64,000 nt of DNA from an uncultured Christensenella sp. GTDB taxonomy: Bacteria; Bacillota; Clostridia; Christensenellales; DTU072. Under the pieces are notes generated by a model, which did not search any database, had not been told where the DNA came from, and was given only the letters and a program-made list of their open reading frames with translations. A program made the translations under genes and the position numbers. Shown piece after piece: positions 3,248-48,282 of this stretch. Within the stretch, counting starts at the first letter, position 1, and every line of letters starts with the position of its first letter. The DNA lies in the NCBI GenBank assembly GCA_949285605.1, contig CASDZI010000003.1, positions 42,586-106,585 of the forward strand, in the 5' to 3' direction.

Positions 3248-3263
3248 AGGAATCTCTGCTAAT

Positions 3264-3294
3264 AGAAAAAGCACCCGCCAAGGGTGCTTTTTCC
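3264..3294. terminator. Bidirectional intrinsic terminator between convergent genes
   Basis: The sequence is AAAAAGCACCC-GCCAA-GGGTGCTTTTT. The GC-rich stem (3271..3276 pairs with 3282..3287) is flanked by an A-run and a T-run. Confidence 0.8.
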
Positions 3295-3314
3295 TTTATG
3301 TTTTCCTTTCGAAA

Positions 3315-6300
3315 TCAGATGTCTCTTTTTATCTTACTTCTTTTTCCCAGTCCGACGCTGATTATCGCAATCGCCGCCACGGCTCCCGCACAGGCGAGGG
3401 CTATGCCAACTATCGCCCCCACCGGCAATCCGTCGTTTCCGTCTGCCGGTTCTCCGTCTCCCGAGGGAGGTATTTCGCTCCATTTTGCGTAAAGCACGGT
3501 ATCCTCTCCGAGCTCATTCAACGAATATATCCTCTCTCCGCTGAAATCGGGACTTGCGTACCAACCGTCGAAAAAGTAATTTTCTTTCTGCGGAGAAGGC
3601 AAAGGCGTGCCTGCCACATAGTTTTGCAAAACCTCTTCCCCGTCGCTCAACGAAAGGGTATAAATATTCCATTCCACCGTCACGGGATCCACCGTGTCGT
3701 CCTCCCAGGTATAATTGACGCTGTCTTTCAAACTTACCGTCGCCGTGTACGTTCCCGCATCTTTAGCTTTGTTTCCGCTTATGTCGCACAGCTCGGAAAC
3801 GTGTATTTCCGCAGTCTGTTCGCTGCCGGTATAAATAAGGTTACGAACGTTTTCGGGCTTGAATACTTTTGCGGGTACTATTTCCCAATTCAAAGTCAAA
3901 TCCTCCACCGTGGAGTCCTGCCAGGTGAAATTAGCTTTGTCTTTAAGCGAAGCCGTTGCGGTGTAATTTCCCGCAACAAGGGCAAAATTACCGCTCAAGG
4001 TATAATACTCGCTCTCCGCTATAGCCGCATACTGTCCCGACGGGGTATAAACGCTGTCTCCGAGGACGACGGGTTTATTTACTTTGAAGGGAACGATTGC
4101 CCACGCAACGGTCTTTATCCCGTAGCTTCCGTCTGCCCAGACGTAATTTGCGTCTTTCAAACTTATTTCGGCGATGTATTCCCCTGCGTTTTTAGCCGTG
4201 TTGTCGCTAAGAACGCAACTTCCGTCCACGGTGATGTCGGCTTCAAGCACAGACCCGTCATAGGTAACGCTCCCGTTATAGAACGGAAGAGCAAGCGTCT
4301 TTTTCTCCACAGTCCAGTCTAAGTTTTTATCCTCGGTCGTTCCGTCCGCCCAGACGTAATTGTTTTTACTTGTCAACGTCGCAGTGACCCTGTAACTGCC
4401 GGCGTTTACGGCGCTATTTCCGCTTAAAGTATAATGATCCGCTTTATTTACGGGAGCGTAAACCGTTTCGCCGCAATATACGGGCATCTCCGTCCCCATA
4501 ACGGGTATCGCCACTTCCAAAGGAAGAATTTTCCAGTCTATCGTTACGTCCGCAGTCTCTCCGCCCGTCCAACGGTAATTGGCGTTGACTAAACGTATCA
4601 CGGCGATATATTCCCCTGCGTCGGTAGCCTTGTTCCCCGTTACCGTGTATTCCGCTCTGGAGGCGACAGCTAACTGCTGTTCGGTCTGCGGAATGTAAAC
4701 GAATACCGTTTCTCCCACCGTGGGTACGGCAATTTCCTTGGGCAAAATACGCCAGGTCACGGTTTTTTCACCGTCGCCACCCGTCGCCCAGACGTAGTTT
4801 TCTTTGATTAAATTGAATTTTACTTCGTAAACTCCCGCATCCAGCTGTTTTTCTCCGGAAATTAAAATGCCGTCTCCGCCTTTCCATTCGAAAGTCTGCA
4901 TTTCGCCGCTGTAATAATATGTTTTTTCGACTATAAGCGTTTCGGGCAAAGGCACTTTTTTCTTTGCTATAGTCCATTCCAGAACGCGATCCTCCGTGGT
5001 TTCGTCCGCCCAACAGGTATTTGCTTTATCTTTAAGAGCAACCGTTAATTCATACGTTCCCGCTTCGACGGCGGTAAGTATACCCGAAGCTGTATAGTAT
5101 AACCCGGACGAAACTCCGCTTTCTTTTGCCTTTCCGTCGTAAACATTGTCTGTCTCAACGGTCGGGGCGGAAACTTTATATTTTGCGACTACCCAGACTA
5201 TATCAAAATAATTGCCTTCGGTATTCCGCCAACGGTAATTGTCGGGGTCGTTAAGGGTGACCGTAACCGTATAAGTGCCTGCCGCAACCGCCGTAAGAAC
5301 TCCGCCGAGAGTGAATTTGTCGTTGCTCGTCAAGGCAAAGTGCAAGGCGTTACCGTTATCGTAAACGTATTCCGTTTCGTCGGAAGGCTCGGGCAGAACT
5401 ATTTTTTCCACCGAAAACCCGTCTATCCGCAAAGATACCTCTCCGTAACGTAAAACGATATGCTCGTCTCCCGCTCTGAACGAATCCGCCGTCGGATACT
5501 CCACCGTGTAAGCGGATAAACTTTCTTCCGAGCCGTCGTTGTAAACTACGTTCACCGCCATATCCGTGGCATCAATTTTTTCGAAAGCAAAATATTCCGT
5601 CTTGGATGGCATATTTACCAAGACAAGTGCGACGACGTATTTTTTTACGGCGGTTATGGTCATCGTTCCGTTTACCGTCAGGTAATTTTCGTCGTCGGGA
5701 GTGAAAGTCCAGGCGTACTCCTTTTCTCCTATGACCAGTCCGTCGTAGTCTCCCCAAACGTATGTGCCTGCGGTGTCTCCCGAAGCGGAAATAATTTCGG
5801 GCAGGACGTTCCCCTCGTAATAGGTCACGTTCGCTACCGCAGGCCGTAAGGTAGGATAGGCTTTCGCTACGGAAACCGTTATCTCCAGAGAATAATTTAT
5901 ATAATTCGTCGGGTCGGAATTGAAATACGCTTCGTATGAAGACTTACTCACTACGGGTTTTTCGGTATCGTCGTTCCAGTAAATGTTATCGGGTAAGGTA
6001 ATGTCGGCTAAAGTCGTTTCGGGGTCGTACGTCACCGAAAAAGACGGGAGGATATAAGGGAGCATTTCTCCCGTAAAAGTGCCTTTTTCCAAGTTTACCG
6101 TCACGCTTAATTCGTAGTCTTTATAATTCGTCGGGTCGGCGTTATAGTAAGCTATGTACGAGGTTATTTTCCTCGTGGGTACCGTCGAAGCATCTTTCCA
6201 ACGGAAAGCGGGGAAACCGGATTTTTCGAAATCAAATGCGCTTAAGGACTGCGTTTTCGAATAAGTACCGCTGAAAGACGGAACTTCTCCGATATCTTCC

Positions 6301-8336: not shown

Positions 8337-8445
8337 AATGCCTCCTTGCATTATACTATAGAAATATTACTTTTATATTATACTGATTATTCCGCTACAC
8401 CGTCAAGCCCCGTGCCTTCGGGAGAAAACCGACTTTATATCGGTA

Positions 8446-18859: not shown

Positions 18860-20122
18860 ATGAAACAACCCTTCTTAACCAAAGAAAAAGCCGAAGAAAT
18901 CATCGCAAAAATCCCTACTCCTTTTCATATTTACGACGAAAAAGGAATAGTCGACAACGCTCGGGAGCTTTTCAAAGCATTCTCCTGGAACAAAGGTTTC
19001 AAGGAATACTTCGCCGTGAAAGCCACCCCCAACCCCGCCATTCTGAAACTTCTGAAAAAGGAAGGCTGCGGAGTGGACTGCTCCAGCTACACGGAATTGC
19101 TTATGGCGGAAGCCTGCGGATTTAGCGGAGATGAAATTATGTTCTCCAGTAACGAAACCGCCGCCGAAGAATACGCCCTCGCCCGCCGTCTGAATGCGAT
19201 AATCAACCTCGACGACATCACGCATATAGATTTTCTGAAAAAGCACGCAGGTATCCCCGAAAAAATCTGTCTGCGTTACAACCCCGGCGGAGACTTCAAG
19301 ATAGGCACCCGTATAATGGGCAATCCCGCCGATGCAAAATACGGTCTGACCCGTCCGCAGATGTCCGAAGCGGTAAAAAGACTTCTGGACGAAGGCGTCA
19401 AGGAATTCGGGATCCACTCCTTCCTTGCCAGCAACACCCTCGGAAACGAGTATTATCCCGAACTTGCCAAAATCCTTTTCCGAACCGTTGCCGAGCTTAC
19501 CGAAGAAACGGGAGCGAAATTCGTATTCGTCAATCTGAGCGGCGGTATAGGAGTGCCTTACCGTCCCGACCAGCCGAAAAACGACATTTTCGTCATCGCC
19601 GACGGCGTGGAAAAAGCCTACAAGGAAACCTTGCTCGACAAGGGTATCGAAGGGATAAAAATATTCACCGAACTGGGAAGATATATGCTTGCGCCCTACG
19701 GACTGCTCGTCACCACCGCTATCCACGCAAAACACACCCATAAGGAATACATCGGGGTGGACGCCTGCGCCGCCAACCTCATGCGTCCGGCTATTTACGG
19801 AGCCTACCACCACATCACCGTCCTCGGCAAGGAAAACGCTCCCTGCGACCACGTTTACGACGTAGTGGGGTCTCTTTGCGAAAACAGCGACAAGTTCGCC
19901 GTGGACAGACCGTTGCCGAAAATCGACGACGGCGACATCTTAGTCATTCACGACGCCGGAGCTCACGGATTTTCAATGGGCTACAATTATAACGGAAAAC
20001 TCAGAAGCGCCGAAGTCTTGCTTCACCCCGACGGCAGTTTCGACCTTATACGCCGTGCCGAAACCGTCAAGGACTACTTCGCCACCTTTAACTTTATGGA
20101 TGAATTCCGTGCCTACAGATAA
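18860..20122 (+). CDS. lysA: Fold-type III PLP-dependent decarboxylase, diaminopimelate decarboxylase-like
   Basis: TPFHIYDE...YFAVKATPNP (PLP lysine), SGGIGVPY and GSLCENSD motifs are present in a 420-aa protein. The family assignment is confident. The substrate (DAP versus a carboxy-polyamine) cannot be settled by eye. Confidence 0.7.
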   Translation: MKQPFLTKEKAEEIIAKIPTPFHIYDEKGIVDNARELFKAFSWNKGFKEYFAVKATPNPAILKLLKKEGCGVDCSSYTELLMAEACGFSGDEIMFSSNETAAEEYALARRLNAIINLDDITHIDFLKKHAGIPEKICLRYNPGGDFKIGTRIMGNPADAKYGLTRPQMSEAVKRLLDEGVKEFGIHSFLASNTLGNEYYPELAKILFRTVAELTEETGAKFVFVNLSGGIGVPYRPDQPKNDIFVIADGVEKAYKETLLDKGIEGIKIFTELGRYMLAPYGLLVTTAIHAKHTHKEYIGVDACAANLMRPAIYGAYHHITVLGKENAPCDHVYDVVGSLCENSDKFAVDRPLPKIDDGDILVIHDAGAHGFSMGYNYNGKLRSAEVLLHPDGSFDLIRRAETVKDYFATFNFMDEFRAYR

Positions 20123-20149
20123 AGGAATAATTGCTTTTAAGCGATAAAG

Positions 20150-20184
20150 AAAAAAAGCCCCGACTTCGGTCGGGTCTTTTCTTT
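20150..20184. terminator. Bidirectional intrinsic terminator between lysA and minE
   Basis: AAAAAAAGCCCCGAC-TTCG-GTCGGGTCTTTTCTTT. Confidence 0.8.
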
Positions 20185-20426
20185 CAGTCCAGAAATTTGA
20201 GCTCCTTAAAACGTATGACGTCGGCTTTTATCGCCACCGTCATAAATCCTTCGTCGTTTTCGCAAACAGCCATTTCCACCTTGCCGTCTTTAAGTTCGAG
20301 GTATGACGCTAAGATTTTCGTAACGTCCTCTTTGAGTAACTGAAACGCTCCTTCCGGGATATTCAAACAGTCGTTAAAGAGCATTTTCTTCAATCTTCCC
20401 ATTTCGGAGAGGTTCTTTTTTTTCAT
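20184..20426 (-). CDS. minE: Cell division topological specificity factor MinE-like
   Basis: This 80-aa protein is ATGA-overlapped with minD. RLKKMLFND...LLKEDVTKILASYLELKDGKVEMAV resembles the MinE anti-MinCD and topological specificity regions. Confidence 0.6.
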   Translation of the reverse strand: MKKKNLSEMGRLKKMLFNDCLNIPEGAFQLLKEDVTKILASYLELKDGKVEMAVCENDEGFMTVAIKADVIRFKELKFLD

Positions 20427-21205
20427 TTCAGTTTCCGCTTCAGAAATCCCACTACTCCCTTATACGGGTGGAGGTAGTCGTAAAGTTTTCTGTCTCCGCC
20501 GCCGAGATAATCCGCAATAAGTCCGTAACTGTACGTTACCGGAGACTTCTTGTCGGTAACGTCTATGAGTCCGTTAAGATTGACCGAGTCGTCCTCGGGG
20601 ATAACTCCGTAAAGCGGAAGCTTTACCGCTCCGGCAATCTCTTTTGCGTCCAGCATAGTCTTATCCATTACGAAATCCCCTCTTATGCGGTTTATGATGA
20701 GCCCTTGTCGGGTAAATCCAAGTGAAGACAATATCTTGCCTGTCTTGTATCCGTCTCTTACGCTTGCCAGATGCGGCGTAGCCACTATTATGCTTTCTTC
20801 CGCTCCGCTCGCCGCACGCAAAAAACTGTCCTCCACCCCTGCCGGACTGTCGATAAGGACGTAGTCGAAAATTTCCGCGGCTTTCAGGCATATTTCCCGA
20901 AATATCTCCGTCGTCACGAACGCTGAACAAGCCGTCATTGAGGGCAGCAACCTGAGTTTGTCCCCTAAATCCACCATACACCGGCTTAAAGTCGCTTTCC
21001 CTCTGGCGAGGTCTCCTATATCGTAAAGGATTTTTTCCTCCGCGCGCATCACCACGTCCAGATTGTTCAAGCCTATATCCCCGTCCACCAAAAGCACCGA
21101 TGAGCCTTTGGCGTTCAACGTAAGTCCTAAATTTGCCGTTACCGTGGTTTTGCCCACGCCGCCTTTGCCGCCGGTTATAAGTATTCTTCTTCCCATACCC
21201 GACAT
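20423..21205 (-). CDS. minD: Septum site-determining ATPase MinD
   Basis: It has a deviant Walker A (GGKGGVGKTT), VLLVDGDIGLNNLD, and a C-terminal amphipathic membrane-targeting helix (GFLKRKLK). Confidence 0.85.
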   Translation of the reverse strand: MSGMGRRILITGGKGGVGKTTVTANLGLTLNAKGSSVLLVDGDIGLNNLDVVMRAEEKILYDIGDLARGKATLSRCMVDLGDKLRLLPSMTACSAFVTTEIFREICLKAAEIFDYVLIDSPAGVEDSFLRAASGAEESIIVATPHLASVRDGYKTGKILSSLGFTRQGLIINRIRGDFVMDKTMLDAKEIAGAVKLPLYGVIPEDDSVNLNGLIDVTDKKSPVTYSYGLIADYLGGGDRKLYDYLHPYKGVVGFLKRKLK

Positions 21206-21283
21206 TTTACCGCCGTTTCCGTTGCGAATTATTTGTTATTATCGCTTTTAGCGACAAATAAAAGCGAAATATTTTTTATTCGT

Positions 21284-21313
21284 TTGACACGTCTCGTCTT
21301 AAGAAGGTATAAT
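21284..21313 (+). promoter_or_regulatory. Promoter of guaB
   Basis: TTGACA (21284..21289), an 18-nt spacer, then TATAAT (21308..21313). Confidence 0.6.
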
Positions 21314-21355
21314 TCTAATAATATACTCATTTACGGTTTTGTAATTTTACGTTAA

Positions 21356-22822
<1,467 letters not shown>

Positions 22823-22837
22823 AAAACGTCATTCTGC

Positions 22838-22872
22838 AAAAAGAGTTCCGTCATTTCGGAACTCTTTTTTTG
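22838..22872. terminator. Bidirectional intrinsic terminator after guaB, also downstream of the GNAT gene
   Basis: AAAAAGAGTTCCG-TCATTT-CGGAACTCTTTTTTT. Confidence 0.85.
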
Positions 22873-22896
22873 TTATCTTAAATTCGAATATCTTTA

Positions 22897-23391
22897 TTAC
22901 AAGGCAATAGTATAAATATTTCTTTCATAAATCTCATTTTTGATCGTTGTTGCCTTTAATTTCGCACCAATATGAGCAAAAGAATGTAAACTTGCTTGAT
23001 TATTAGGATGAATTGTAGCAATAATATTCTTAATTCCTTTCTTTTTTGCTATTTTTAGAAGCCTTTTGTTGAGTTTATATAAATAATTATGCCCACGATA
23101 TTTCGGCGCAATCATGCACCGTCCTATTTCAGCAACAGGTCTCTCTGTATGAGAACATAATTCTAACGAAGCACCATATTCGTGTTCGTTGAAGAATAAA
23201 CAAGAGGCCCCTATAAGTTTTCTCCTATCGAATAACCCCAAAAAATAACACCATTCATCGTTCAGAAAATTTTTTCTGGAAACTTCGTTTATCGGCAACC
23301 ACCATCGTTTGTCAACCAGATTCTTTTCTATCTCCTCAATCAAGGCATCCAAAATTTCGGAGTGTTTTTTCTTTAATTTCTTGATTTTCAT
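22897..23391 (-). CDS. GNAT-family N-acetyltransferase (distal gene of the TIR operon)
   Basis: It has a GNAT motif A-like core (IGRCMIAPKYRGHNYLYKLNKRLLKIAKKKGIKNIIATIHPNNQASLHSF). The ATG at 23391..23389 overlaps the TIR gene stop as TAATG. An alternative in-frame ATG at 23412 would give a 22-nt overlap. The gene is AT-rich. Confidence 0.7.
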   Translation of the reverse strand: MKIKKLKKKHSEILDALIEEIEKNLVDKRWWLPINEVSRKNFLNDEWCYFLGLFDRRKLIGASCLFFNEHEYGASLELCSHTERPVAEIGRCMIAPKYRGHNYLYKLNKRLLKIAKKKGIKNIIATIHPNNQASLHSFAHIGAKLKATTIKNEIYERNIYTIAL

Positions 23392-24728
23392 TATTTTCTT
23401 ATTATAATACATGGACGGAGGCTTGCCGCAGTATCGTCTACATAATTACAAAAAGGCACGGCTTCGACACAACCCCTACGATCTATATTTTCTACCGAGT
23501 CGTTGGTAACTCCCGGAGATCTCGTCCACCAGTCTCCTTTGCCGTAATGACTGGCGCTTGTGCTGGAATATGCTCCTCTGGCTTTAGCATAATCGGTAGT
23601 CAATGCACCGTCACAACTCGTTTTGTATATTTCCTTATGACTTATCAGAAAGACTTTATCGTTGGTATCCGCCGATGTAGAAGGATAATAACCGCTATTA
23701 GTATTGTCGATTTTGGTATATACAATTTTTTCCCGCTCAAACTCATTAAAAGCGTCATAAAAGAATTCATTGTTTAACCAACGCCTTATGTAGGAAGTCT
23801 CCCAGTTATTTGCGGCGTAAAAAGTGCTATTATCAATTCTTTGGGCAAAACGGTTAAGACTAAATTGTACCGCATCGATAATTCTTTCCGAAATAGCAAA
23901 ATAGTGTTGTTCGTCCTCAAACAGAATATTCCAAACAATAGGGCTTATTTCATAATAATTCCTCGCACCTGCATTAATAACCTTCCCGTTATCGAATTTG
24001 GTTTTATTAAAAGGATTTTCCGCTATAGTGGCGTAGGATTTTCCTCTATAGTTCAAAGTATATGTGTTAGGATTAAGGGTCGTCTCTCCATTAAACATTC
24101 CCGTCGCTATTTTGTCAATAAGATCTATGTCCGATACTACGGACTGCGGATAACTACCGAAGGATATTTTTTTATCGTTAACTATTTTAAACTCGTCAAT
24201 ATTCAATTCAAAAACAGATGTCGTTTCCGTTTTCCGCGGATTAGAATCTAACGAAGCCAAAATAACGGGAATTAAATCGATTTCAGCCTTAAAATTATAT
24301 ACACCTAAATAATTAACCGGATTTATATGCCTTATTCTGTTAATTTCCGTATTTTCAAAAACACGAAACATTTCAGGCTGATCGTCATAGGAGAAATCAG
24401 ACAAAGCAACCGGTATGAATGAGATATTAGGATTTTGCAAGGCAGTTTTTATTTCAAAATACACCATATCGTCATCATTTACACATTTTCGAAAATAATC
24501 CTTATCCAATAATAATATAAAGCATTTGACGTCTTGCAGTACGTTCTTGATGACTTCCTTAAAATCCTCTCCTTTCGGTATACACAACGGTGCAAAAAAA
24601 GGAACAAACTCGTTGATCATATTTGCATTACGATAATGCAATAAATCTTTATAAATAGAGGAACCTAATTCACCCGTCCGATCTCCTCTATAAGAAATAA
24701 ATACGTTGTACTCTTGTCCTTTGTACAT
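23391..24728 (-). CDS. TIR domain protein fused to a DUF6273-like C-terminal domain
   Basis: The N-terminal ~150 aa read YNVFISYRGDRTGELGSSIYKDL...CIPKGEDF...CFILLLDKDYF...MVYFEIKTAL...ISFIPVAL. This is the TIR beta-A FISYR motif, a BB-loop-like segment and the conserved Glu position. The C-terminal ~270 aa read ISFGSYPQSVV, IVWNIL, NNWETSYIRRWLNNEFFYDAF, DKVFLISHKEI, GDWWTRSPG, SLRPCIII. From memory, this pattern matches the family catalogued as DUF6273. No signal peptide or TM is present. Confidence 0.75.
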   Translation of the reverse strand: MYKGQEYNVFISYRGDRTGELGSSIYKDLLHYRNANMINEFVPFFAPLCIPKGEDFKEVIKNVLQDVKCFILLLDKDYFRKCVNDDDMVYFEIKTALQNPNISFIPVALSDFSYDDQPEMFRVFENTEINRIRHINPVNYLGVYNFKAEIDLIPVILASLDSNPRKTETTSVFELNIDEFKIVNDKKISFGSYPQSVVSDIDLIDKIATGMFNGETTLNPNTYTLNYRGKSYATIAENPFNKTKFDNGKVINAGARNYYEISPIVWNILFEDEQHYFAISERIIDAVQFSLNRFAQRIDNSTFYAANNWETSYIRRWLNNEFFYDAFNEFEREKIVYTKIDNTNSGYYPSTSADTNDKVFLISHKEIYKTSCDGALTTDYAKARGAYSSTSASHYGKGDWWTRSPGVTNDSVENIDRRGCVEAVPFCNYVDDTAASLRPCIIIRK

Positions 24729-24748
24729 AATTCCCCCCTTTTTTAATA

Positions 24749-24777
24749 ATTATACTATAAAACCTTACTATTTTCAA
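24749..24777 (-). promoter_or_regulatory. Promoter of the TIR-GNAT operon
   Basis: The minus strand has TTGAAA (24777..24772), a 17-nt spacer, then TATAAT (24754..24749). A short leader with an AAGGGGGG RBS precedes the ATG at 24728. Confidence 0.6.
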
Positions 24778-24830
24778 TAAAAAATAAAGAAAATTTTGAC
24801 TAAGTTAAAAGATTTACATAAGTTTCGGTA

Positions 24831-24859
24831 TTGACAAAGGAACGGTTAAATTGTAAAAT
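24831..24859 (+). promoter_or_regulatory. Promoter of the small Lys/Glu-rich protein gene
   Basis: TTGACA (24831..24836), a 17-nt spacer, then TAAAAT (24854..24859). An AAGGAG RBS precedes the ATG at 24882. Confidence 0.5.
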
Positions 24860-24881
24860 ATTACGGTAAGGAGATTATAAT

Positions 24882-25160
24882 ATGTCTAAGAAAACCGATA
24901 AACTTACCCCCGAAGAAAAGAAAATAAGATATGACGCCGCTATGGCTAAACTTCAGGAAAAACACGATAAAAAAATAGTCAAGCTCGCCGAAAAAAAGGC
25001 TCGTCTTACTGCTAAGCTCAAAGAAAAATATGCCGAAGATCCCGAAAAACTGGAACTCGAACTCGGTATCCTTACCATAGACAACGACGTTTGGATCGCT
25101 ATGGCGGACGCCGAACTTGCCGAAAAAGCCAAAACTCTGGAACTTTTGTATTTGAAATAA
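24882..25160 (+). CDS. Hypothetical small Lys/Glu-rich, predicted all-helical protein
   Basis: This 92-aa ORF has its own promoter, RBS and terminator. KKIVKLAEKKARLTAKLKEKYAEDPEKLELEL suggests a coiled coil. I recognise no family. Confidence 0.5.
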   Translation: MSKKTDKLTPEEKKIRYDAAMAKLQEKHDKKIVKLAEKKARLTAKLKEKYAEDPEKLELELGILTIDNDVWIAMADAELAEKAKTLELLYLK

Positions 25161-25182
25161 AAATTTTGAGTTAATATAACGA

Positions 25183-25220
25183 CCCCTTTTTGTCGTATAA
25201 AAAGGGGTTTTTATTTTTTA
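25183..25220 (+). terminator. Intrinsic terminator after the small protein gene
   Basis: CCCCTTTTT-GTCGTAT-AAAAAGGGG is followed by TTTTTATTTTTT. Confidence 0.8.
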
Positions 25221-25745
25221 CATGATCTTTTCGAAACGGAAAAAAGTTTCGAGGCGATTCCCCTCGCTCCCTTCCGCCTTTTCCTGGCTATTATCGGGAT
25301 GACTTGCGCAGAAAAATTCCACTATACGAAAACCGCATTTGTTCACATAAAAATGAATATTCCTTTCTTCGAAATATGGCGTTACCGTCTCCCATATTTT
25401 CGTATCGGGATATTTCCTTTCGATAGCTTTCCATGCTTTATAACCTAAACCTTTGGTATGCTCGGTAACTTTTATGAAAAAAAGATCCAACGAATTACGG
25501 TGCGTTTCTTTGTTTATCGAAACAACTACCCCTCCGACCGTTTTCCCGTCGTAAACGATATGATAACTTTCCGCCGAGGGCTCTTCGATATTTGCCAGAA
25601 TATCCTTCTCCGAAGGTATAGGTTCGTCTTTTCCGAATTTTTCTCTGACCGTTACCGCAAAAGCCTCCCGCAGCGTTTGCGAAAAAACCGGGATTTCTTC
25701 CTTTTTTAACGGCAAAAAAGATATTTCGCTTTCTTCCATGCTCAC
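25218..25745 (-). CDS. GNAT-family N-acetyltransferase
   Basis: This 175-aa protein reads VGGVVVSINKETHRNSLDLFFIKVTEHTKGLGYKAWKAIE, a GNAT beta4-alpha3 motif A context. Confidence 0.7.
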   Translation of the reverse strand: MSMEESEISFLPLKKEEIPVFSQTLREAFAVTVREKFGKDEPIPSEKDILANIEEPSAESYHIVYDGKTVGGVVVSINKETHRNSLDLFFIKVTEHTKGLGYKAWKAIERKYPDTKIWETVTPYFEERNIHFYVNKCGFRIVEFFCASHPDNSQEKAEGSEGNRLETFFRFEKIM

Positions 25746-25812
25746 TACCCTCTAAAAGTATTACGGCGCAACGAAAAGTCGCGCCGTAACAAATTCTTTT
25801 ACTTCAAAATAT

Positions 25813-26913
25813 TTATAAAGTTCTTACTTTGAGAATACCGTTGATACCGCTTAAGTCTGCGACGGCGTCTCCGTCGATTATGGCGTAACCGTAATTCCCT
25901 TTCGTAGCTACTGCTTTGTCTCCGGGAACGTATTTTACCGCTTCTTCGGCAGAGGACAGGAAGCATACGCAGGTACGCACCTTCCCGGTACGGGCTTTGG
26001 TGAGGGCGGGATAATTTACGCTGTTGACGATCTCTCCCTCTTCAAGATAATTCTTGAGTTCCTTCGCAGCCATTTCCGCACAGTTGTCTTCGGCTTCCTC
26101 GGTGGAAGCTCCCAGGTGCGGCAATACGATTATGTTTTCGGTATTGATGACGTTTTCGTCGGGGAAATCCACTACGTATTTGGCTATCTTCCCTCCCAGA
26201 GCCGCTTTCAGGTCGGCTACGTTGACGAGAGAACCTCTGCTCATATTCAAAATTATAACCCCGTCTTTCATTGCGGCAATAGCCTCGGCGTTTATCATAC
26301 CTTTGGTGGAATCGAGAAGCGGAACGTGTAAAGTAATTATATCGCTGTTTGCGTAAATTCCGTCCAGATCGGTTATTTCCACCGCTTCGTCCAAAAGCGA
26401 TTTGGATTTTTCGGACAGATACGGGTCGTACCCCACGACTTTCATTCCCAACGCTATGGCGGCGTTAGCTACCAAGACCCCTATCGCGCCCAGTCCGATA
26501 ACGCCTAAAGTTTTTCCGAAAATTTCGTGTCCGCCGAAAGCGGCTTTTCCTTTTTCGGTGGCTTTCGCTACGTCGCTAGTCAAGGTGTTGACCCACTTGT
26601 TGCCGCCGATTATGTCTCGGCTCGCTATCAACATTCCGCAGAGGACGAGTTCCTTGACGGCGTTGGCGTTGGCTCCGGGGGTGTTGAATACCACTATTCC
26701 CTTTTCTGCCATTTTCTCGACGGGAATGTTGTTGACGCCGGCGCCGGCACGGCCTATCGCCGCCAGACTTGCGCCGGTTTCGTAATCCGCCATATTGAAA
26801 CTGCGTAAAATTATTCCGTCGGGATCGACGCAGTCGTCGCTAACTTCGTATTTTGCGTCGAATACGTTATTGATGACCGGACTTATTTTGTTAAGTTTAA
26901 GTATTTTTACCAT
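25813..26913 (-). CDS. serA: D-3-phosphoglycerate dehydrogenase (D-isomer 2-hydroxyacid dehydrogenase family)
   Basis: GVIGLGAIGVLVA is a Rossmann motif, and the HVPL...NMSRG...HLGAST catalytic Arg/Glu/His context is present. The gene lies directly downstream of serC. Confidence 0.85.
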   Translation of the reverse strand: MVKILKLNKISPVINNVFDAKYEVSDDCVDPDGIILRSFNMADYETGASLAAIGRAGAGVNNIPVEKMAEKGIVVFNTPGANANAVKELVLCGMLIASRDIIGGNKWVNTLTSDVAKATEKGKAAFGGHEIFGKTLGVIGLGAIGVLVANAAIALGMKVVGYDPYLSEKSKSLLDEAVEITDLDGIYANSDIITLHVPLLDSTKGMINAEAIAAMKDGVIILNMSRGSLVNVADLKAALGGKIAKYVVDFPDENVINTENIIVLPHLGASTEEAEDNCAEMAAKELKNYLEEGEIVNSVNYPALTKARTGKVRTCVCFLSSAEEAVKYVPGDKAVATKGNYGYAIIDGDAVADLSGINGILKVRTL

Positions 26914-26915
26914 AA

Positions 26916-27986
26916 TTATTTATTCTCCGCTTCGAATTTTTTCATAAAGGCTATGAGTTTTTCCACGCCTTCCACCGGCATTGCGTTGTAAATGGAAGCT
27001 CTCATACCGCCTACCAGTTTGTGCCCTTTCAGCGTGACAAGCCCGTTCGCTTCGGCTTCTTTTATGAATTTTGCGTCCATTTCCTTGCTCGGAGTGACGA
27101 ACGGCACGTTCATTATGGAACGGTCGGCGGGATTGACCGAGTTGGTGAACAAAGAGGAATTGTCGATAAAATCGTAAAGTAATTTCGCTTTGTACTCGTT
27201 GATCTCCTGTATGGCTTTCACGCCGCCCAGTTTCTTCAACCAACGGAAAGTGAGCATAGCCATGTAAGTGGCGAAAGTGCAGGGCGTGTTGTAAAGGCTG
27301 TTGGCTTCGGCCTGAGTGCTGTATTTGAGCATGGTCGGGCAGAACGGAAGCGGAGAACCTATTACGTCCTTCTTGACGATGACCAGAGTAAGTCCGCTGG
27401 GTCCGATGTTCTTCTGCGCTCCGGCATAGATAAGATCGAACTTATTGACGTCCATGACTTCGCTCATTATGTTACTGCTCATATCGGCTACAAGGTGCGG
27501 CACGTTCGGAAGTTTGGTGTATCTCGTTCCGAAAATGGTATTGTTGGTGGTGATATGCACATAGTCGGTGCCTTCGCGGAATTCTATCTTGTCCACGTCG
27601 GGGATATAGGTGTAATTGGCTTCCTTGCTGCTGGCGACGCAGGCGATATCGCCGTATTTGCAGGCTTCTTTGAAAGCTTTGTTTGCAAAATTACCCGTTA
27701 CGATATAGTCGGCCTTTCCTTTCACGAGGAGGTTCAACGGCACCGCTTCGAACTGGGTGGACGCACCGCCCTGGAGGAACAATACATAATAATCGTCGCT
27801 TATCCCCATGAGTTCTCGGATAAGGCTCTGGGCTTCCTCGTGGATCTCGTCGTACCACTTGGAACGGTGACTCATTTCCACCACGCTCATTCCGCTCCCG
27901 TTATAATCGAGAAAATCTCTCTGAACCGCTAATTTTGCTTCTTCCGGCAACATGGAAGGCCCGGCGCTGAAATTGTAAACTTTCAT
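26916..27986 (-). CDS. serC: Phosphoserine aminotransferase
   Basis: MKVYNFSAGPSMLPEE N-terminus, GGASTQF and YAGAQKNIGPSGLT (PLP lysine) are present in a 356-aa protein. Confidence 0.92.
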   Translation of the reverse strand: MKVYNFSAGPSMLPEEAKLAVQRDFLDYNGSGMSVVEMSHRSKWYDEIHEEAQSLIRELMGISDDYYVLFLQGGASTQFEAVPLNLLVKGKADYIVTGNFANKAFKEACKYGDIACVASSKEANYTYIPDVDKIEFREGTDYVHITTNNTIFGTRYTKLPNVPHLVADMSSNIMSEVMDVNKFDLIYAGAQKNIGPSGLTLVIVKKDVIGSPLPFCPTMLKYSTQAEANSLYNTPCTFATYMAMLTFRWLKKLGGVKAIQEINEYKAKLLYDFIDNSSLFTNSVNPADRSIMNVPFVTPSKEMDAKFIKEAEANGLVTLKGHKLVGGMRASIYNAMPVEGVEKLIAFMKKFEAENK

Positions 27987-28033
27987 ATTTATGCTCCTTT
28001 TTTATTTTTATAAATATTTAATATATTTTAACA

Positions 28034-28954
28034 TTAAAAATCTATCAAGTCAATTACGGAAATCAATTCCGTCATATCGGAAGCACGGAAGACCGCTTCT
28101 TTTATCTCCTTATGTCCCCTGCGTCCTTTTATGTAAAAAGCGATTTGCTTTTTCATACAATTCGCCACCGTCCTTTCGGGCAGAAAAGACAACAGGGAAA
28201 TATGTTCCAAAATGGTTTCTTTTACGTTAAAATCATACTCTTCGCCCCGAATTGCGGCAAAAACATAAGGACGCCCGAAAGCTCCCCTCGCTATGCTGAC
28301 GTAATCGACGCCCGTCGTTTCCTTCATTTTAAGGTAACTTTCTCTGTCGGTGACGTCGCCGTTGCCGCAGACGGGAATTTTTACGGCTTGTTTCACTTTT
28401 CCGATAATGCCGTAATCGACTTTCCCGGAGTAATACTTATCCCTCGTCCTGCCGTGCACGGTGACCATATCGGCGCCGGCTTCCTCGCTTGCAGCGGCGC
28501 ACTCGGGAGCGTTTTCGTATCCCGAATAAAAGCCCGCCCGCATTTTCACCGTAAGGAGCCTGTCTCCCGCCGCTTTTTTCGCTTCCTTTACTATGCGGAA
28601 GATCCTGTCGGGGTCTTTCATCAATGCGCTTCCTTCGCCGTTATTGACTATCTTAGGCACGGGACACCCCATATTTATATCGATGACGGGAAACTTTTGC
28701 AACCGCTCGTCTTTTATCGCCTCGGCTAAAATCTCGGGTTCGCTTCCGAAAAGCTGTACGCCGGTATTTTTTTCTTCGGGGGAAAGCGTCAACAACGCCT
28801 CGGTGTTGGCGTTGTTGTATAAAAGTCCCTTTGCGCTGACCATTTCGGTAAAACAAAGTCCCGCCCCGTAACGGGTGCAAAGGGTCCGCATGCCTGCGTC
28901 GGTATATCCTGCGCAGGGAGCTAAAATAAGGTCGGTGCCGTTATACGTTATCAT
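28034..28954 (-). CDS. dusB: tRNA-dihydrouridine synthase
   Basis: LAPCAGYTDAGMR, DINMGCPVPKI (catalytic Cys) and TVHGRTR motifs are present. Confidence 0.8.
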   Translation of the reverse strand: MITYNGTDLILAPCAGYTDAGMRTLCTRYGAGLCFTEMVSAKGLLYNNANTEALLTLSPEEKNTGVQLFGSEPEILAEAIKDERLQKFPVIDINMGCPVPKIVNNGEGSALMKDPDRIFRIVKEAKKAAGDRLLTVKMRAGFYSGYENAPECAAASEEAGADMVTVHGRTRDKYYSGKVDYGIIGKVKQAVKIPVCGNGDVTDRESYLKMKETTGVDYVSIARGAFGRPYVFAAIRGEEYDFNVKETILEHISLLSFLPERTVANCMKKQIAFYIKGRRGHKEIKEAVFRASDMTELISVIDLIDF

Positions 28955-43485: not shown

Positions 43486-46296
43486 TTAACGGTTTTTCGG
43501 GATATATTTCGAAGTATAACCTTTCCCCGACGCCGCAACGAATTCGGGGGTGCCGATGACCACCACCTGTCCGCCGGCGTCTCCGCCTTCGGGTCCCAGG
43601 TCCACTATATGATCGGCTATCCTTATCACGTCGAGATTGTGTTCGATGACGATTATCGTATTGCCGCCTTCGGCGAGACGGTTCAAGATATTGACCAGTT
43701 TCTCCACGTCCGCCGAGTGAAGTCCGGTAGTCGGTTCGTCGAGGATATAGAGAGTTTTTCCCGTGCTTCTTTTAGACAGCTCGGTGGCGAGTTTTATCCT
43801 CTGCGCTTCCCCGCCGCTGAAAGTGGTGGCAGGCTGACCTAATTTGATATATCCGAGTCCCACGTCCTTGAGGGTTTTCAGTTTGGTATAGATCCTCGGT
43901 ATGTTCTCGAAAAAGTCGCACGCTTCGTCCACCGTCATATCCAGCACGTCGTAAATGGACTTCCCTTTGAATTTGACTTCCAGCGTTTCCCTGTTGTAAC
44001 GCTTGCCGTGGCACACCTCGCACGGAACGTAAACGTCGGGCAAAAAGTGCATTTCTATTTTGATGATGCCGTCGCCGGTGCAGTTCTCGCACCGTCCGCC
44101 CTTTACGTTGAAGGAAAACCTCCCCGCCTCGTACCCTCTCGCCTGTGCGTCGGGGGTCTTGGCAAACAGCTCCCTTATATAGGTGAACACTCCCGTGTAG
44201 GTAGCGGGATTGCTCCTCGGCGTTCTGCCTATTGGGCTCTGGTCTATGGCGATAACCTTGTCTAAATATTCGCTTCCCAGTATTTCGTCGAATTCTCCGA
44301 CGGGTTCGTGCCCCTTGTTCAGTACCCTGTCCAGATACGGATAAACTATCCCGTTGACAAGACTGCTCTTGCCGCTGCCGCTTACTCCCGTCACCACGTT
44401 GATGACCCCTAAACGGAAATCCACGTTGATGTTCTTCAGGTTGTTGAGACGGGCTCCGTGCACGCTTAAGACCTTCCCGTTGCCTTGTCGTCTTACCGAG
44501 GGTACGGCTATCTCTCTTCTGCCGCTGAGAAAATCGCCTGTTATGGACTTTGGGCATCTCATTATGTCTTCAGGAGTACCGCAAGCCACGAGTTCGCCGC
44601 CGTTTATCCCCGCTTCGGGTCCGATATCCACGACGTAGTCGGCTTCCCTTATGGTATCTTCGTCGTGCTCTACCACGATAAGGGTGTTGCCTAAATCCCT
44701 CAACCGTTTCAAGGTCGCGATGAGTTTTTCGTTATCCCTTTGATGAAGTCCGATACTCGGTTCGTCCAGAATATACAACACTCCGGTAAGTCCGCTTCCT
44801 ATCTGGGTGGCAAGACGTATCCTCTGCGCTTCTCCGCCGCTGAGCGTGGCGCTCGCCCTGCTCAACGTAAGATACCCCAAACCTACGTCGATAAGGAATT
44901 TCACCCTTTCGGAAATCTCTTTCAGAACGGGTGCTGCTATGGTGGCGTTCTTTTCCGAAAGACGCAGTCCGTTGAAAAACTCGGGAAGCCTCTCCACGGG
45001 AATATCGGTAACTTCGCTTATGTTCCTGCCGCCCACCGTCACGGCAAGCACCTCTTTTTTCAGCCTTTTTCCGTGACAGACCGGACAAGGAGACGCCGTC
45101 ATCAGTCTTTCGATGTCCGCTCTCACGCCGTCGCTCTGCGTTTCCTTGTAACGACGGGTAAGGTTGTTGACGACGCCTTCGTAATAGGCGTTGAATTCCA
45201 TAGTGTAGTTGGCGCTCTGCGCACTCATCTTTATCTTTTCGCCCTGCGTACCGTAAAGAATTATATCCTTTATCCTCTGCGGCAGATCCTTATAAGGGGT
45301 GTCGAGAGAAAAATTGTAACGCTTGGAAAGCGCCCGAAACTGCATCATACTCATTTTGCCCATATCGAGATTCCAGCCTGTGCATTTTATGGCGCCGTCT
45401 CTGATGGACACGTTCGGATCGGGTATGAGTTTATGAACGTCGATCTCGTTTCGGAACCCCAACCCCGAACAGCTTTCGCACGCCCCGTAAGGCGAGTTGA
45501 AGGAAAACATTCTCGGAGTTATCTCCCCTATGCTTATACCGCATACGGGACAGGAATAATCGGTACTGAAGAGTTCTTCCTCCCCGTCTTTTTCTATGAC
45601 CACCAACCCGTCGGCGAGTTTAAGGGCGGTTTCTATACTGTCGGAAAGACGGCGGTTTATCCCCTCTTTCATGACCAGTCTGTCCACCACCACGCTGATG
45701 TTGTGTTTCAGATTCTTGTCGAGGCTGATTTCTTCGTTCAGTCCGTAGACGTTGCCATCCACCTTGACCCTGACGTAACCGCTCCTCTTCAGACTTTCCA
45801 GCTGCTTGACGTACTCGCCTTTTCTGCCCCTGACTATGGGGGCGAGCACTATGAATTTCGTTCCGTCGGGATAGGCGCAGATCTTGTCCACGATCTGGTC
45901 CACGCTTACCGAAGTTATTTCCCTGCCGCAGACCGGACAATGAGGTGTCCCTATGCGTGCAAACAGCAAACGCAGATAGTCGTATATCTCCGTAACGGTC
46001 CCCACCGTGGAACGGGGGTTTTGGGAAGTGGTCTTCTGATCTATGCTGATAGCCGGGCTCAACCCTTCGATGCTCTCCACGTCGGGTTTGTCCATCTGCC
46101 CCAAAAACTGCCTGGCGTAACTGGACAGACTTTCCACATACCGCCGCTGTCCTTCGGCAAAAATGGTATCGAAAGCCAGACTGGACTTTCCGCTGCCGCT
46201 GAGCCCGGTGAAAACCACCAGCTTGTCCCTCGGTATGTCCACGTCGATATTTTTCAGATTGTGTTCCTTTGCTCCGCGAATACGTATTTCGCTCAT
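43486..46296 (-). CDS. uvrA: Excinuclease ABC subunit A
   Basis: [39 protein letters not shown], two ABC modules (LSGGEAQRI twice) and zinc modules are present in a 936-aa protein. Confidence 0.97.
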
Positions 46297-46323
46297 TTTT
46301 CCTCCGTTTCCTGTTTCGGAAAA

Positions 46324-48282
46324 CTATTTTCTGAGTAACTGTTTCAGTTCGGCTATTTCGTCTCTCAATTTGATACAGCTTTCAAAATCCAGCTGTGCGC
46401 TCGCCGTTTTCATAAGTCCGGTAAGCCTTTCTATTTCTTTGGAAACTTCCTTCGAAGTCATTTTTTCCCTGCCTTTGTCGGCTTTCTTGGTGATTATGAT
46501 ACTGTTTTTTATTTCCTTCTTAATCGTCCTCGGCGTAATGCCGTGGGCTTTGTTGTAAGAAATCTGATAATTTCTTCTACGTTCGGTCTCCTCCATTGCG
46601 CTCTTCATACTGTCGGTGACGGTATCGGCGTAAAATATTACTTTGGCTTCGGCGTTTCTCGCCGCTCTCCCCACCGTCTGAATGAGCGAACTCCTGCTCC
46701 GCAGGAAACCTTCCTTGTCGGCGTCCAGTATGGCCACCAGCATAACCTCGGGGATATCCAACCCTTCCCTCAAAAGGTTTATACCCACGATGACGTCGGT
46801 TTCGCCCTTACGCAGAGCGTTGATAATTTCGATACGTTCGAGGGTGTCTATATCGCTGTGCATATAGGTGGCTTTAATATTATGTTCCGCAAAATAAAGG
46901 GTTAAACTCTCCGCCATTTTTTTGGTAAGGGTGGTGACCAGCACCCTGCCGCCCTTTTCCACGGTGGCGTAAATTTTTCCCATAAGGTCGTCTATCTGTC
47001 CTTCGGTCTTGCGTATCTCTATCGGTGGATCGACAAGTCCCGTCGGACGCAAAAGCTGCTCGGCTACCTGGCTTTGTTCCTTCATTTCGTAGTCGCCCGG
47101 GGTGGCGCTGACGCAGATAAGCTGAGAGTAACGGGAGGAAAATTCCTCGAAATTCAAAGGACGGTTGTCGTAAGCGGCTTTCAAGCGGAACCCGTAACCG
47201 ACGAGGTTGTCTTTTCTCGAACGGTCGCCTGCGTACATTCCCCTTATCTGCGGAATGGTGATGTGCGACTCGTCTATGAACATCAGAAAGTCGTCGGGAA
47301 AATAATCCAGCAAAGTGAAGGGCGGCGTACCCGGTTCCCGTCCGTCGAAGTATCGGGAATAATTTTCTATCCCCGAACAATACCCTATCTCCCGTATCAT
47401 CTCTATGTCGTAACAGACCCTTTCCCTTAAGCGCTGTTCCTCGATGAGTTTGTTCCGTTCCTTAAAGGCGGCGCACTCTTCGACCATATCCTTTTTTATC
47501 CTGTCGAGGGTGACTTCCAGATCTTCCTCTCCCACCACATAGTGACTTGCCGGGAAAATAGCGGCGTGCGCAAGCGTTGCGGTGACGTGTCCCGTGGTTG
47601 CGTCTATTTCGTAAAGTCCGTCCACGGTGTCTCCGAAAAACTCCGCTCTCACCGCAAAAGACGAGGCGTTCGACGGAAAAATTTCCAACACGTCCCCTCT
47701 CACCCTGAAGGTGGAACGCACGAAGTCCATATCGCTTCGTTTGTATTGCAGACTGACGAGTTTGTCTATGAGCTTATCCCTGTCTATCTCCATATTCGGA
47801 CGGAGAGAGATCATCTGCTTGAAATATTCCTCGGGAGCGCCCAGGCCGTATATACAGGAAACCGAAGCCACCACGATGACGTCCCGCCTTTCCCCGAGAG
47901 ACGCCGTGGCGGAATGACGCAATTTGTCTATCTCGTCGTTTAAGCTCATATCCTTTTCGATATAGGTGTCGGTGGAAGGGATATACGCTTCGGGACGGTA
48001 ATAGTCGTAATACGACACGAAATACTCCACTCTGTTGTGCGGGAAAAGCTCCCGGAATTCGTTACAGAGCTGGGCGGCGAGAGTTTTGTTGTGGGCGATG
48101 ACGAGAGTGGGGCGGTTCAGTTTCGCTATGACGTTTGCCATGGTAAAAGTCTTGCCCGAACCGGTGACCCCGAGCAAGACCTGCGTCCGTAATCCGTCCT
48201 CCACCCCTTGGCAGAGCTTCTCGATAGCCTGCGACTGATCGCCGCAGGGAGCGTATTCGCTCACAAGTTCGAATTTATCCAT
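46324..48282 (-). CDS. uvrB: Excinuclease ABC subunit B
   Basis: [19 protein letters not shown], helicase motifs and a C-terminal UVR domain (LRDEIAELK) are present in a 652-aa protein. Confidence 0.97.

Follow-up and report, generated by a model that had tools for sequence, protein, structure and literature searches.

Innate immunity in animals, in plants and in bacteria has the TIR domain as a common catalytic core. To our knowledge, each new type of TIR partner has so far revealed new signalling chemistry, for example the isomers of cyclic ADP-ribose (cADPR) or histidine-linked ADP-ribose (His-ADPR). The described systems that come closest to the locus analyzed here are SARM1 and C. elegans TIR-1, in which a TIR domain that cleaves nicotinamide adenine dinucleotide (NAD+) is joined to a domain for regulation or sensing, and the Thoeris systems (types I-XI), in which a TIR gene stands beside a variable second gene. 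Here we describe a cassette of two genes from an uncultured Christensenella sp., which lies in a stretch of 64,000 nucleotides of contig CASDZI010000003.1; this whole stretch is called the window. Gene 1 encodes a fusion of a TIR domain with a DUF6273 domain and gene 2 an acetyltransferase of the GNAT family. An earlier reading of the DNA (the original prediction) had proposed the pair as a candidate defence or toxin module. None of its refuting conditions that could be checked in silico spoke against this proposal, and the analysis supports it, with a possible NAD-centred conflict module as the preferred form and with less weight on the toxin/antitoxin version.

The TIR protein and its acetyltransferase partner

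The original prediction assigned a TIR fold to the N-terminus of the gene 1 protein and placed a catalytic glutamate in the motif VYFEIKTAL; the model and the alignments bear out both assignments. An AlphaFold2 model built from 45 family sequences has a mean predicted local distance difference test (pLDDT) score of 79.8, with values of mostly 80-92 over residues 1-130, and a Foldseek search of the PDB with this model returned almost exclusively TIR domains. The TIR domains of SARM1, C. elegans TIR-1 and AbTir matched with a probability of 1.00 and with target-normalised template modelling (TM) scores of 0.6-0.69. Many of the top matches were SARM1 and TIR-1 (20-25% identity), followed by AbTir, the TIR-APAZ protein of SPARTA and plant TIRs. 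The sequence searches gave the same picture; SARM1 and TIR-1 were the only PDB TIR structures reached by phmmer and hmmsearch, with the single protein as well as with the family profile. The data indicate that the N-terminus of the gene 1 protein has, as modelled, a TIR (flavodoxin-like) fold, which is closest to that of SARM1.

The segment DMVYFEIKTAL of gene 1 pairs with DWVHKEIVTAL of SARM1 and with DWVHKELKCAF. Glu92 aligns with the catalytic glutamate of SARM1, which we take to be Glu642, a numbering with which Y568, R569, R570 and G601 in the same alignment agree; Gly53 aligns with the BB-loop glycine of SARM1. Glu92 is invariant in 45 full-length family sequences and in 29 members of the wider TIR clade described below, and it is predicted to be the catalytic residue for NAD+ cleavage. 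No signal peptide or membrane segment was seen by eye (no predictor was run), so that the protein is presumably cytoplasmic.

The remaining part of the protein matches the Pfam family DUF6273 (E 9.4e-20, 71.6 bits versus a cut-off of 23.5) over residues 297-443, and blastp alignments with other DUF6273 proteins cover residues 176-445. Two papers (PMC10743442; bioRxiv 10.1101/2024.10.15.618418) liken DUF6273 to the C-type lectin domain; they report it from receptor-binding proteins of gut phages and from targets of diversity-generating retroelements (DGRs), and in some phage proteins they locate the DGR variable region at its C-terminus. Given the Pfam match and these two papers, we report residues 176-445 as a putative lectin-like fold. 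The PDB matches of the full-length gene 1 model are dominated by the TIR domain, and the BFVD search gave weak matches to a phage protein named DUF6273 (rank 8).

Framework motifs of this domain (ANNYE.S.IR.WLN, DKVFLLS, TDYAKA.G, WWTRSP and VRP) are common to 10 other DUF6273 proteins. The loop that lies between RSP and VRP differs in every other aligned DUF6273 protein and is invariant across the 45 TIR-fused sequences (ENVDRRGC..PFCNYVDDTAA), D416, R417, R418, C427, D432 and T433 being among the invariant residues. We infer that this loop is the equivalent of the DGR variable region, and we read its invariance as pointing to one fixed ligand and not to a diversifying one. The possibility that gene 1 is itself a DGR target was considered and ruled out, because the equivalent of the variable loop is invariant in all 45 sequences. 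No repeat of the loop region was found within positions 22600-25900, and the operon contains no reverse-transcriptase gene.

The gene 2 protein matches the Pfam family Acetyltransf_1 (E 1.6e-10, 41.7 bits versus a cut-off of 20.7). Its AlphaFold2 model has a mean pLDDT of 95.4, and the PDB gave 839 GNAT-type matches at E<=0.001. Motif A is conserved in all three types of GNAT that accompany these TIR proteins (the window type, the L053/L057 type and that of the methyltransferase sister module, see below), with R99 invariant and G100 invariant or nearly so. The motif reads R-G-x-N, not R-G-x-G, and a Phe occupies the position of the usual general-acid Tyr. From the sequence we propose that the GNAT is a catalytically intact, single-domain enzyme. 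Its nearest relatives by profile and structure are 3g8w, 4mbu, ArsN/PAT, MccE, the tabtoxin resistance protein (TTR), PaiA, YncA, SpeG, RimL/RimJ and Naa60. The idea that the GNAT might be a toxin that acetylates aminoacyl-tRNA, which was part of the original prediction, lost ground here, as the protein is closer to small-molecule and N-alpha acetyltransferases and as no tRNA-acetylating toxin is among its top 60 profile or top 50 structure matches. The comparison leans towards a small-molecule or N-alpha amine as the probable substrate; it is a leaning only, since the similarity to these neighbors (E 1e-6, 10-19% identity) is generic and stays at the level of GNATs in general.

A search of 5.8 billion proteins for homologues of gene 1 resulted in about 45 full-length TIR-DUF6273 proteins with identities of 40-94%. 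The matches in genome collections were without exception to genomes assembled from metagenomes, with uncultured Clostridia or Bacillota of the gut as their source. A GNAT gene is the immediate downstream neighbor of the TIR-DUF6273 gene in about 19 of 20 lineages (loci L001, L004, L007, L010, L011, L013, L015-L020, L046, L051, L052, L055 and L066); among the loci whose sequence extends far enough downstream only one lacks it, and the co-conservation on which the original prediction depended is therefore evident. Of the 12 junctions measured apart from that of the window (-1), 11 place the GNAT start at -11, -4, -1 or +1 nt relative to the stop. In L053, L057 and probably L054 (contig ends) the downstream gene encodes a different GNAT with a length of 183-185 aa (amino acids); it matches Acetyltransf_1 (1e-12), while hhalign gives a probability of only 16% for a relation to the main GNAT family. 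Apparent frameshifts split the GNAT gene in L016 (1594-2086) and the TIR-DUF6273 gene in L019 (10001-11328), which are either assembly errors or signs of occasional decay of the cassette.

The wider TIR clade and the contexts of the cassette

The TIR clade to which gene 1 belongs is rare; of 1.84 billion proteins searched, only 34 representatives reach E<=1e-10. The Pfam family TIR_2 was found at E<=0.001 in 22 of 29 clade members, the best E being 1.1e-18. The C-termini of the 29 members scanned are diverse: nine have BspA-type leucine-rich repeats (LRR_5), five a class I S-adenosylmethionine (SAM) methyltransferase, three DUF6273, two an IF-2B-like domain and two TPR; the rest have other or unmatched C-termini. 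A constant catalytic TIR that is combined with swappable C-termini suggests the architecture of a sensor-effector receptor.

The clade also contains a sister module of the cassette, in which the same type of TIR is fused to a SAM methyltransferase (460-485 aa) with an intact VLDVGCGNG motif. The TIR part is 36-43% identical to that of gene 1 over residues 5-156, including the RxKHI..Y..Y.F extension, and the fusion gene is directly followed by a gene for a 173-177-aa GNAT, which is 20-36% identical to the GNAT of the window and alignable with it end to end. This sister type is several-fold commoner; it makes up most of 227 GNAT clusters, compared with about 25 clusters of the window type. It was found in L023-L029, L032-L034, L036-L039, L041, L049, L050, L058 and L059, and its hosts are Christensenellaceae, Stercoripulliclostridium and other Clostridia. 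In L031, L040 and L042 the TIR-methyltransferase fusion occurs without a GNAT. We found no published description of a TIR-methyltransferase plus GNAT module. The fact that an unrelated GNAT takes the place of the window type in L053/L057, together with the related GNAT behind the methyltransferase fusion, indicates that it is the acetyltransferase activity itself that is selected.

A link of the GNAT to the TIR clade as a whole could be ruled out by TIR-LRR_5 loci that have no GNAT and by a TIR gene that is paired with a gene for a HAD-family hydrolase. The GNAT accompanies the DUF6273 and the methyltransferase types and not the TIR-LRR_5 type; it thus tracks the type of C-terminal domain. The hydrolase pair was seen in L064 (656-2874) and L065 (358-2576), where the gene for a 536-aa TIR protein, whose C-terminus could be assigned to no family, overlaps by 4 nt with that for a 203-aa hydrolase. 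Furthermore, in the islands of L005-L009 a gene for a CitMHS-family transporter follows the TIR-LRR_5 gene, and the stop of the latter overlaps the start of the former by 1 nt in L005 (772-3566), L007 (5194-7979) and L009 (1470-4255). This may be another pair of a TIR and a membrane partner; it was seen in related islands only. In L044 (9905-12484) an 859-aa protein is a fusion of the same TIR clade with a domain of the IF-2B family, which includes ribose-phosphate isomerases.

The cassette occurs in housekeeping contexts that are unrelated to each other. These are guaB/serA in the window and in L001, PHP/GDPD-lepA in L046, dapF with an AAA protease in L013, guaA/GH127 in L017 and TetR/acyl-CoA dehydrogenase in L020. 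This distribution argues that the cassette is mobile. Six of about 20 contexts are islands dense in TIR, STING, Macro, NUDIX or ADP-ribosylglycohydrolase genes (the TIR-rich islands being those of L004-L006, L007-L009, L011 and L066), and to this extent the defence-island association that had been looked for is present. The island of L004 (1-13356) comprises TIR-HD (HD_3), TIR-DUF4190, a protein kinase and TIR-STING; that of L007 (5194-16670) has TIR-LRR_5, CitMHS, a CAP12-type TIR, an Endonuclease_NS nuclease, Macro and ADP-ribosylglycohydrolase. In L011 (348-12315) we find AAA, FHA, RyR, TIR, CN_hydrolase-TIR-LRR_5 and Fic, and in L066 (98-14504) RyR, GDPD, a CAP12-type TIR, TIR, AAA and NUDIX. 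The genes of these four arrays are co-directional, and the arrays look like large NAD/ADP-ribose-centred conflict islands of gut Clostridia. In L010 the pair is preceded by a gene for an LRR_5 protein and, one gene further upstream, by that for a 1242-aa DUF4062 protein (2269-5997); according to a 2026 preprint, DUF4062 is a TIR-like NAD+-cleaving enzyme (NADase) of the Swarozyc defence system.

The cassette in the window

The features of the cassette and of its immediate surroundings are collected in Table 1. The two genes are on the minus strand, with one promoter at the 5' side and a shared terminator at the 3' side. The minus-strand operon, its TTGAAA-17-TATAAT promoter, both open reading frames (ORFs) and the TAATG overlap were all found where the original prediction had put them, and the three further TAATG junctions that it listed in the window (52244, 57414 and 59103) are real. 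The ATG of the GNAT uses the final A of the TAA stop of gene 1. An in-frame ATG at 23412 would give a longer GNAT ORF; the alignment of 20 partner GNATs begins at the Met of 23391, which favors the latter start. Among 14 promoter-like matches in the 2.6-kb region the cassette promoter has the joint top score, together with one site on the plus strand, and its 11/12 matches compare with a mean of 8.3 in shuffles of the region; its -10 hexamer is at 24749..24754. The terminator scan called the hairpin behind the GNAT gene on the plus strand only; its palindrome suggests that it serves both directions.

Table 1. Positions of the cassette and of neighboring features in the window.
Feature	Position	Strand	Basis
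Gene 1, 445-aa TIR-DUF6273 fusion protein	23391..24728	-	ORF, Pfam, 44 full-length homologues
Gene 2, 164-aa GNAT acetyltransferase	22897..23391	-	ORF, Pfam Acetyltransf_1, AlphaFold2 model
TIR domain with clade-specific extension, residues 1-160	24249..24728	-	Foldseek, phmmer/hmmsearch
Codon of Glu92, predicted catalytic glutamate	24453..24455	-	Alignment with SARM1 E642
DUF6273-type domain, residues 176-445, predicted ligand sensor	23394..24203	-	Pfam, blastp to other DUF6273 proteins
Loop ENIDRRGC..PFCNYVDDTAA, about residues 406-437	23418..23513	-	Alignments
Sigma-70-type promoter TTGAAA-17-TATAAT	24749..24777	-	11/12 consensus matches
Strong Shine-Dalgarno sequence AAGGGGGG, 5 nt before gene 1 ATG	24734..24741	-	Direct sequence reading
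Palindromic terminator hairpin, 13-bp stem, A and T runs beside it	22838..22869	.	Between the convergent guaB and GNAT stops
Low-GC, hyper-divergent islet with cassette and 92-aa ORF	22801..25212	.	GC content, identity to L001, dS
92-aa ORF	24882..25160	+	
Promoter of 92-aa ORF, TTGACA-17-TAAAAT	24831..24859		
Palindromic hairpin adjoining the second GNAT gene	25173..25217		
Second GNAT gene, 175 aa, unrelated to gene 2	25218..25745	-	

The genes that flank the cassette are guaB (which encodes IMP dehydrogenase, IMPDH), serA and serC. The site between the guaB terminator and the serA-serC block had been recognized correctly, with one correction: the 92-aa ORF and the second GNAT gene separate the operon from serA.

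The two cassette genes have a GC content of 0.355 versus 0.481 for the window. The nucleotide identity to the syntenic locus L001 is 80-88% across 22801-25200 and mostly 90-97% in the flanks. The number of synonymous substitutions per site (dS) relative to L001 is about 1.4 for both cassette genes, compared with 0.24-0.28 for guaB and serA. The ratio of non-synonymous to synonymous substitutions (dN/dS) is 0.021 for gene 1 and 0.074 for the GNAT gene, from which it follows that both are under purifying selection. The islet is hyper-divergent yet strongly constrained, and it occupies a fixed chromosomal site. Its divergence from L001 suggests either an allelic replacement by recombination or the long-term maintenance of divergent alleles. 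No direct or inverted repeats that would mark an insertion were found beside the islet. An Rfam scan of 20000-28500 gave no family and only one small RNA match, far below threshold.

The Lys/Glu-rich 92-aa ORF is oriented divergently from the TIR promoter, has a promoter of its own and lies within the hyper-divergent stretch. It is kept in L001-L003 and is not found beside the cassette in L013; it has no PHROGs family, and no Pfam match is recorded for the copies in L001-L003. The second GNAT gene is part of a stretch (25213-25821) in whose place L001, although collinear elsewhere, has about 28 bp; it is a strain-specific single-gene indel. The position of this indel beside a hairpin indicates that the islet behaves as a small variable hotspot.

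The original prediction saw no partner gene of a known TIR system in the window. A PADLOC scan of the 47 ORFs of the window agrees with this, in that it found no CD-NTase, cyclase, Argonaute or STAND NTPase and only UvrA/UvrB cross-matches. These are the PADLOC matches at 43486..48282 (-) to mad3 (7.7e-102), mad8, LmuB, AriA and PbeA. We rejected them as genes of a MADS system and read the 936-aa and 652-aa proteins as UvrA/UvrB because of their size, their adjacency and their ABC-ATPase/helicase profile. The 1678-aa ORF at 3315-8351 (-) had no PADLOC match.

Possible functions and comparison with known systems

We estimate a probability of roughly 45% that the cassette is a small mobile NAD-centred conflict module, probably of the anti-phage or abortive-infection type. 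Gene 1 would then encode a cytoplasmic receptor-like enzyme, the DUF6273 domain of which binds one fixed ligand via the invariant loop. Ligand binding would release or oligomerise the N-terminal SARM1-type TIR, which would cleave NAD+ through Glu92 and so cause a depletion of NAD+ and/or the formation of an ADP-ribose-derived product. The NADase activity and the ligand-triggered activation are suggested by homology, and the role in defence is likewise a prediction. The translationally coupled GNAT would supply a required acetyl-transfer step; its target would most likely be an amine-bearing small molecule connected either with the reaction of the TIR or with the ligand that is sensed, and its role would be self-protection or modification of the product, as for MccE, TTR and PAT/ArsN. 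This assignment of a role to the GNAT is speculative and has a probability much below that of the module as such. The conservation of motif A, the substitution by an unrelated GNAT and the solo occurrence of both genes (see below) together suggest that the GNAT contributes acetyl-transfer chemistry and not mere binding.

A more specific version of this mechanism, in which one small molecule is processed first by the TIR and then by the GNAT, appears unlikely to us, albeit worth stating. The TIR would cyclise ADP-ribose or conjugate it, for instance to an acceptor with an amine, as happens in His-ADPR. The GNAT would N-acetylate the product, thereby creating or quenching an acetylated NAD-derived immune metabolite that was not known before; bacterial pattern recognition would be the task of the cytoplasmic C-type-lectin-like domain. 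If this is true, the pair and its commoner methyltransferase sister would form a new TIR system family whose chemistry is also new.

Several observations weigh against the view that the cassette is a conflict module. The TIR_2 match of the window protein (E 1.7e-5, 25.7 bits) remains just under the 28-bit cut-off, and neither protein was matched by PADLOC, even at E<=1. A fixed ligand loop is unusual for a sensor in an arms race. In about half of the contexts the surrounding genes are ordinary housekeeping or metabolic genes. No GNAT follows the TIR-LRR_5 gene at two independent loci (L062 and L063). In L014 a TIR-DUF6273 gene without GNAT ends at a terminator; its neighbors are a RadC-like gene, which we take to be such from our own reading of its motifs, and a DnaB-type helicase gene. 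L067, on the other hand, contains a GNAT of the window family (50% identical) that stands alone with its own promoter. The solo gene and the solo GNAT show that the partnership is not obligate. Finally, a tblastn search of phage and plasmid records resulted in weak matches to DUF6273 only and in no cassette, and no copy was found in IMG/VR; the cassette is not phage- or plasmid-borne in the data searched.

The alternative that we rank first, though still as an unlikely one, is a Thoeris-like pair in which the TIR-DUF6273 protein senses infection and makes an ADP-ribose-derived signal and the GNAT is the effector. The signal-activated GNAT would arrest growth by acetylating an essential target, for instance aminoacyl-tRNA, a ribosomal protein or a translation factor. 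The order of a TIR gene and a variable gene behind it is the logic of Thoeris, as laid out in the accessible part of a 2025 survey of TIR signalling (bioRxiv 10.64898/2025.12.03.692087), and other members of the clade have different, tightly coupled partners, namely CitMHS (L005-L009) and the HAD hydrolase (L064/L065). Both genes are found alone without harm, as would be expected of a latent sensor and a latent effector. Acetyl-CoA holds a 3'-phospho-ADP moiety, so that a GNAT could in principle, by our reasoning, bind an ADP-ribose-like ligand. However, the GNAT of the cassette is a bare 164-aa catalytic domain that has no domain for binding a signal, its top 50-60 neighbors include no tRNA-acetylating toxin, and neither PADLOC nor NCBIfam reached ThsB or another Thoeris model. 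The closest similarity of the TIR is to SARM1, which depletes NAD, and not to ThsB. Furthermore, that part of the survey names no acetyltransferase among its 29 effector types.

It is improbable, in our estimate, that the pair has no immune function and serves as an accessory for the processing of NAD, nucleotide sugars or small molecules. The ligand of the lectin-like domain would be a conserved metabolite or glycan of cellular or dietary origin; the TIR would have glycohydrolase or base-exchange activity, the product of which would be acetylated by the GNAT. The invariant ligand loop fits well with such a role, as do the partners and fusions of the clade, which are small-molecule enzymes or transporters (SAM methyltransferase, IF-2B-like, HAD hydrolase, CitMHS). 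Many contexts are metabolic, the cassette being located beside guaB in the window and beside guaA in L017, and the nearest relatives of the GNAT act on small amines. The distribution of the cassette speaks for a different kind of element; it is patchy and mobile, with a low-GC, hyper-divergent allele at a conserved site, and the pair recurs within arrays of TIR, STING, Macro and NUDIX genes. In addition, the sequence similarity is specifically to SARM1, a NADase that executes cell death, and no conserved biosynthetic cluster surrounds the cassette.

Quite doubtful is a classical toxin-antitoxin or addiction pair, in which a GNAT toxin that blocks translation is neutralised by the gene 1 protein or a toxic TIR NADase by the GNAT. 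A downstream GNAT of about 165 aa with an overlapping start mirrors the operons of GNAT toxins, and the cassette is small, mobile and equipped with its own promoter. The upstream gene, however, encodes a 445-aa two-domain enzyme and not a small ribbon-helix-helix (RHH) or DUF1778 antitoxin. An intact homologue of gene 1 occurs alone in L014 and the GNAT occurs alone in L067; this weakens the toxin-antitoxin version of the original prediction. The conservation of both catalytic motifs and the substitution by an unrelated GNAT fit a shared chemistry better than a neutralising complex, and no neighbors of the TacT/AtaT type were found for the GNAT. That the two genes are chance neighbors or a decaying remnant without joint function, for which one could cite the sub-threshold TIR_2 match in the window protein and the frameshifts at two homologous loci (L016 and L019), is hardly credible, since their adjacency is kept down to 40% identity in unrelated contexts, dN/dS is 0.02 and 0.07, the start/stop coupling is conserved and a strong promoter and ribosome-binding site are present.

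The conflict module remains our preferred, if tentative, reading. We found no described precedent for a SARM1-like TIR that is coupled to a dedicated acetyltransferase, here with three GNAT lineages and two C-terminal domains, nor for the presumed intracellular use of a lectin-like domain whose other known occurrences are in surface proteins and in the receptor-binding proteins of phages. All hosts of the module are gut Clostridia that have been little studied (Christensenellales-like metagenome-assembled genomes). If functional, it would offer a two-gene system of about 1.9 kb for studying how chemistry dependent on acetyl-CoA meets NAD-based immunity, and it would point to a ligand that is detected by a lectin-like sensor of fixed specificity.

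In its mode of action the cassette would be nearest to a sensor-coupled NADase of the SARM1 type, and its proteins belong to the TIR, GNAT and DUF6273 superfamilies. In the alignment of gene 1 with SARM1 and TIR-1 the catalytic Glu, a preceding loop that contains a Cys and the glycine of the BB loop all coincide; probably shared as well is the fusion of a regulatory or sensor domain to an NAD-cleaving TIR, which in gene 1 is suggested by homology. Gene 1 differs from SARM1 in its reversed domain order, which makes the TIR N-terminal, in the lack of ARM and SAM domains, in having DUF6273 as the predicted sensor and in having M88 where SARM1 has W638; the identity is about 20-25% and the GNAT partner has no counterpart in SARM1. 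The Thoeris systems have in common with the cassette the TIR gene beside a variable second gene, and relatives of the cassette are found near TIR, Macro and STING genes. The difference is that the cassette matches no ThsB, ThsA or other Thoeris model and that its GNAT is bare, without a SLOG, Macro or membrane module. The partner genes of CBASS, Pycsar, SPARTA and Avs systems were not found in the window; the operon consists of two genes between promoter and terminator.

The self-resistance and small-molecule GNATs MccE, TTR, PAT/ArsN, YncA and PaiA are, like gene 2, single-domain proteins of about 165-180 aa. Such enzymes acetylate the amine of amino-acid-like or aminoacyl-nucleotide toxins, and MccE is the self-immunity enzyme for microcin C7. 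They differ from the GNAT of the cassette in that none is linked to a TIR gene. The toxin-antitoxin pairs TacAT, AtaRT, KacAT and ItaRT resemble the cassette in the size of the GNAT, its downstream position and its overlapping start, whereas the cassette has no RHH/DUF1778 antitoxin and its GNAT can occur alone (L067). The tentaclins and the Mtd-like DGR targets belong to the same Pfam family as gene 1 and have the same framework motifs. The DUF6273 proteins of phages and of the Firmicutes surface are extracellular or part of the virion, often contain Flg_new or Ig domains and have a hypervariable loop; in contrast, the domain of gene 1 is fused to a TIR, its loop is invariant and there is no DGR nearby.

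The original prediction knew of no named system with this pair, and this still holds for the sources covered. In addition to the PADLOC result, NCBIfam gave only matches far below threshold (ThcB4 with 15.3 bits versus a cut-off of 220), the PHROGs matches were limited to acetyltransferase families of a generic kind and a single family without known function, and a search of the literature for an operon of a TIR with a GNAT or acetyltransferase found nothing relevant. The cassette is without a match to any named system tested. Together, these comparisons suggest that it is best classed among the TIR-based conflict systems, from which it stands apart by an acetyltransferase partner without precedent and by a predicted lectin-like sensor.

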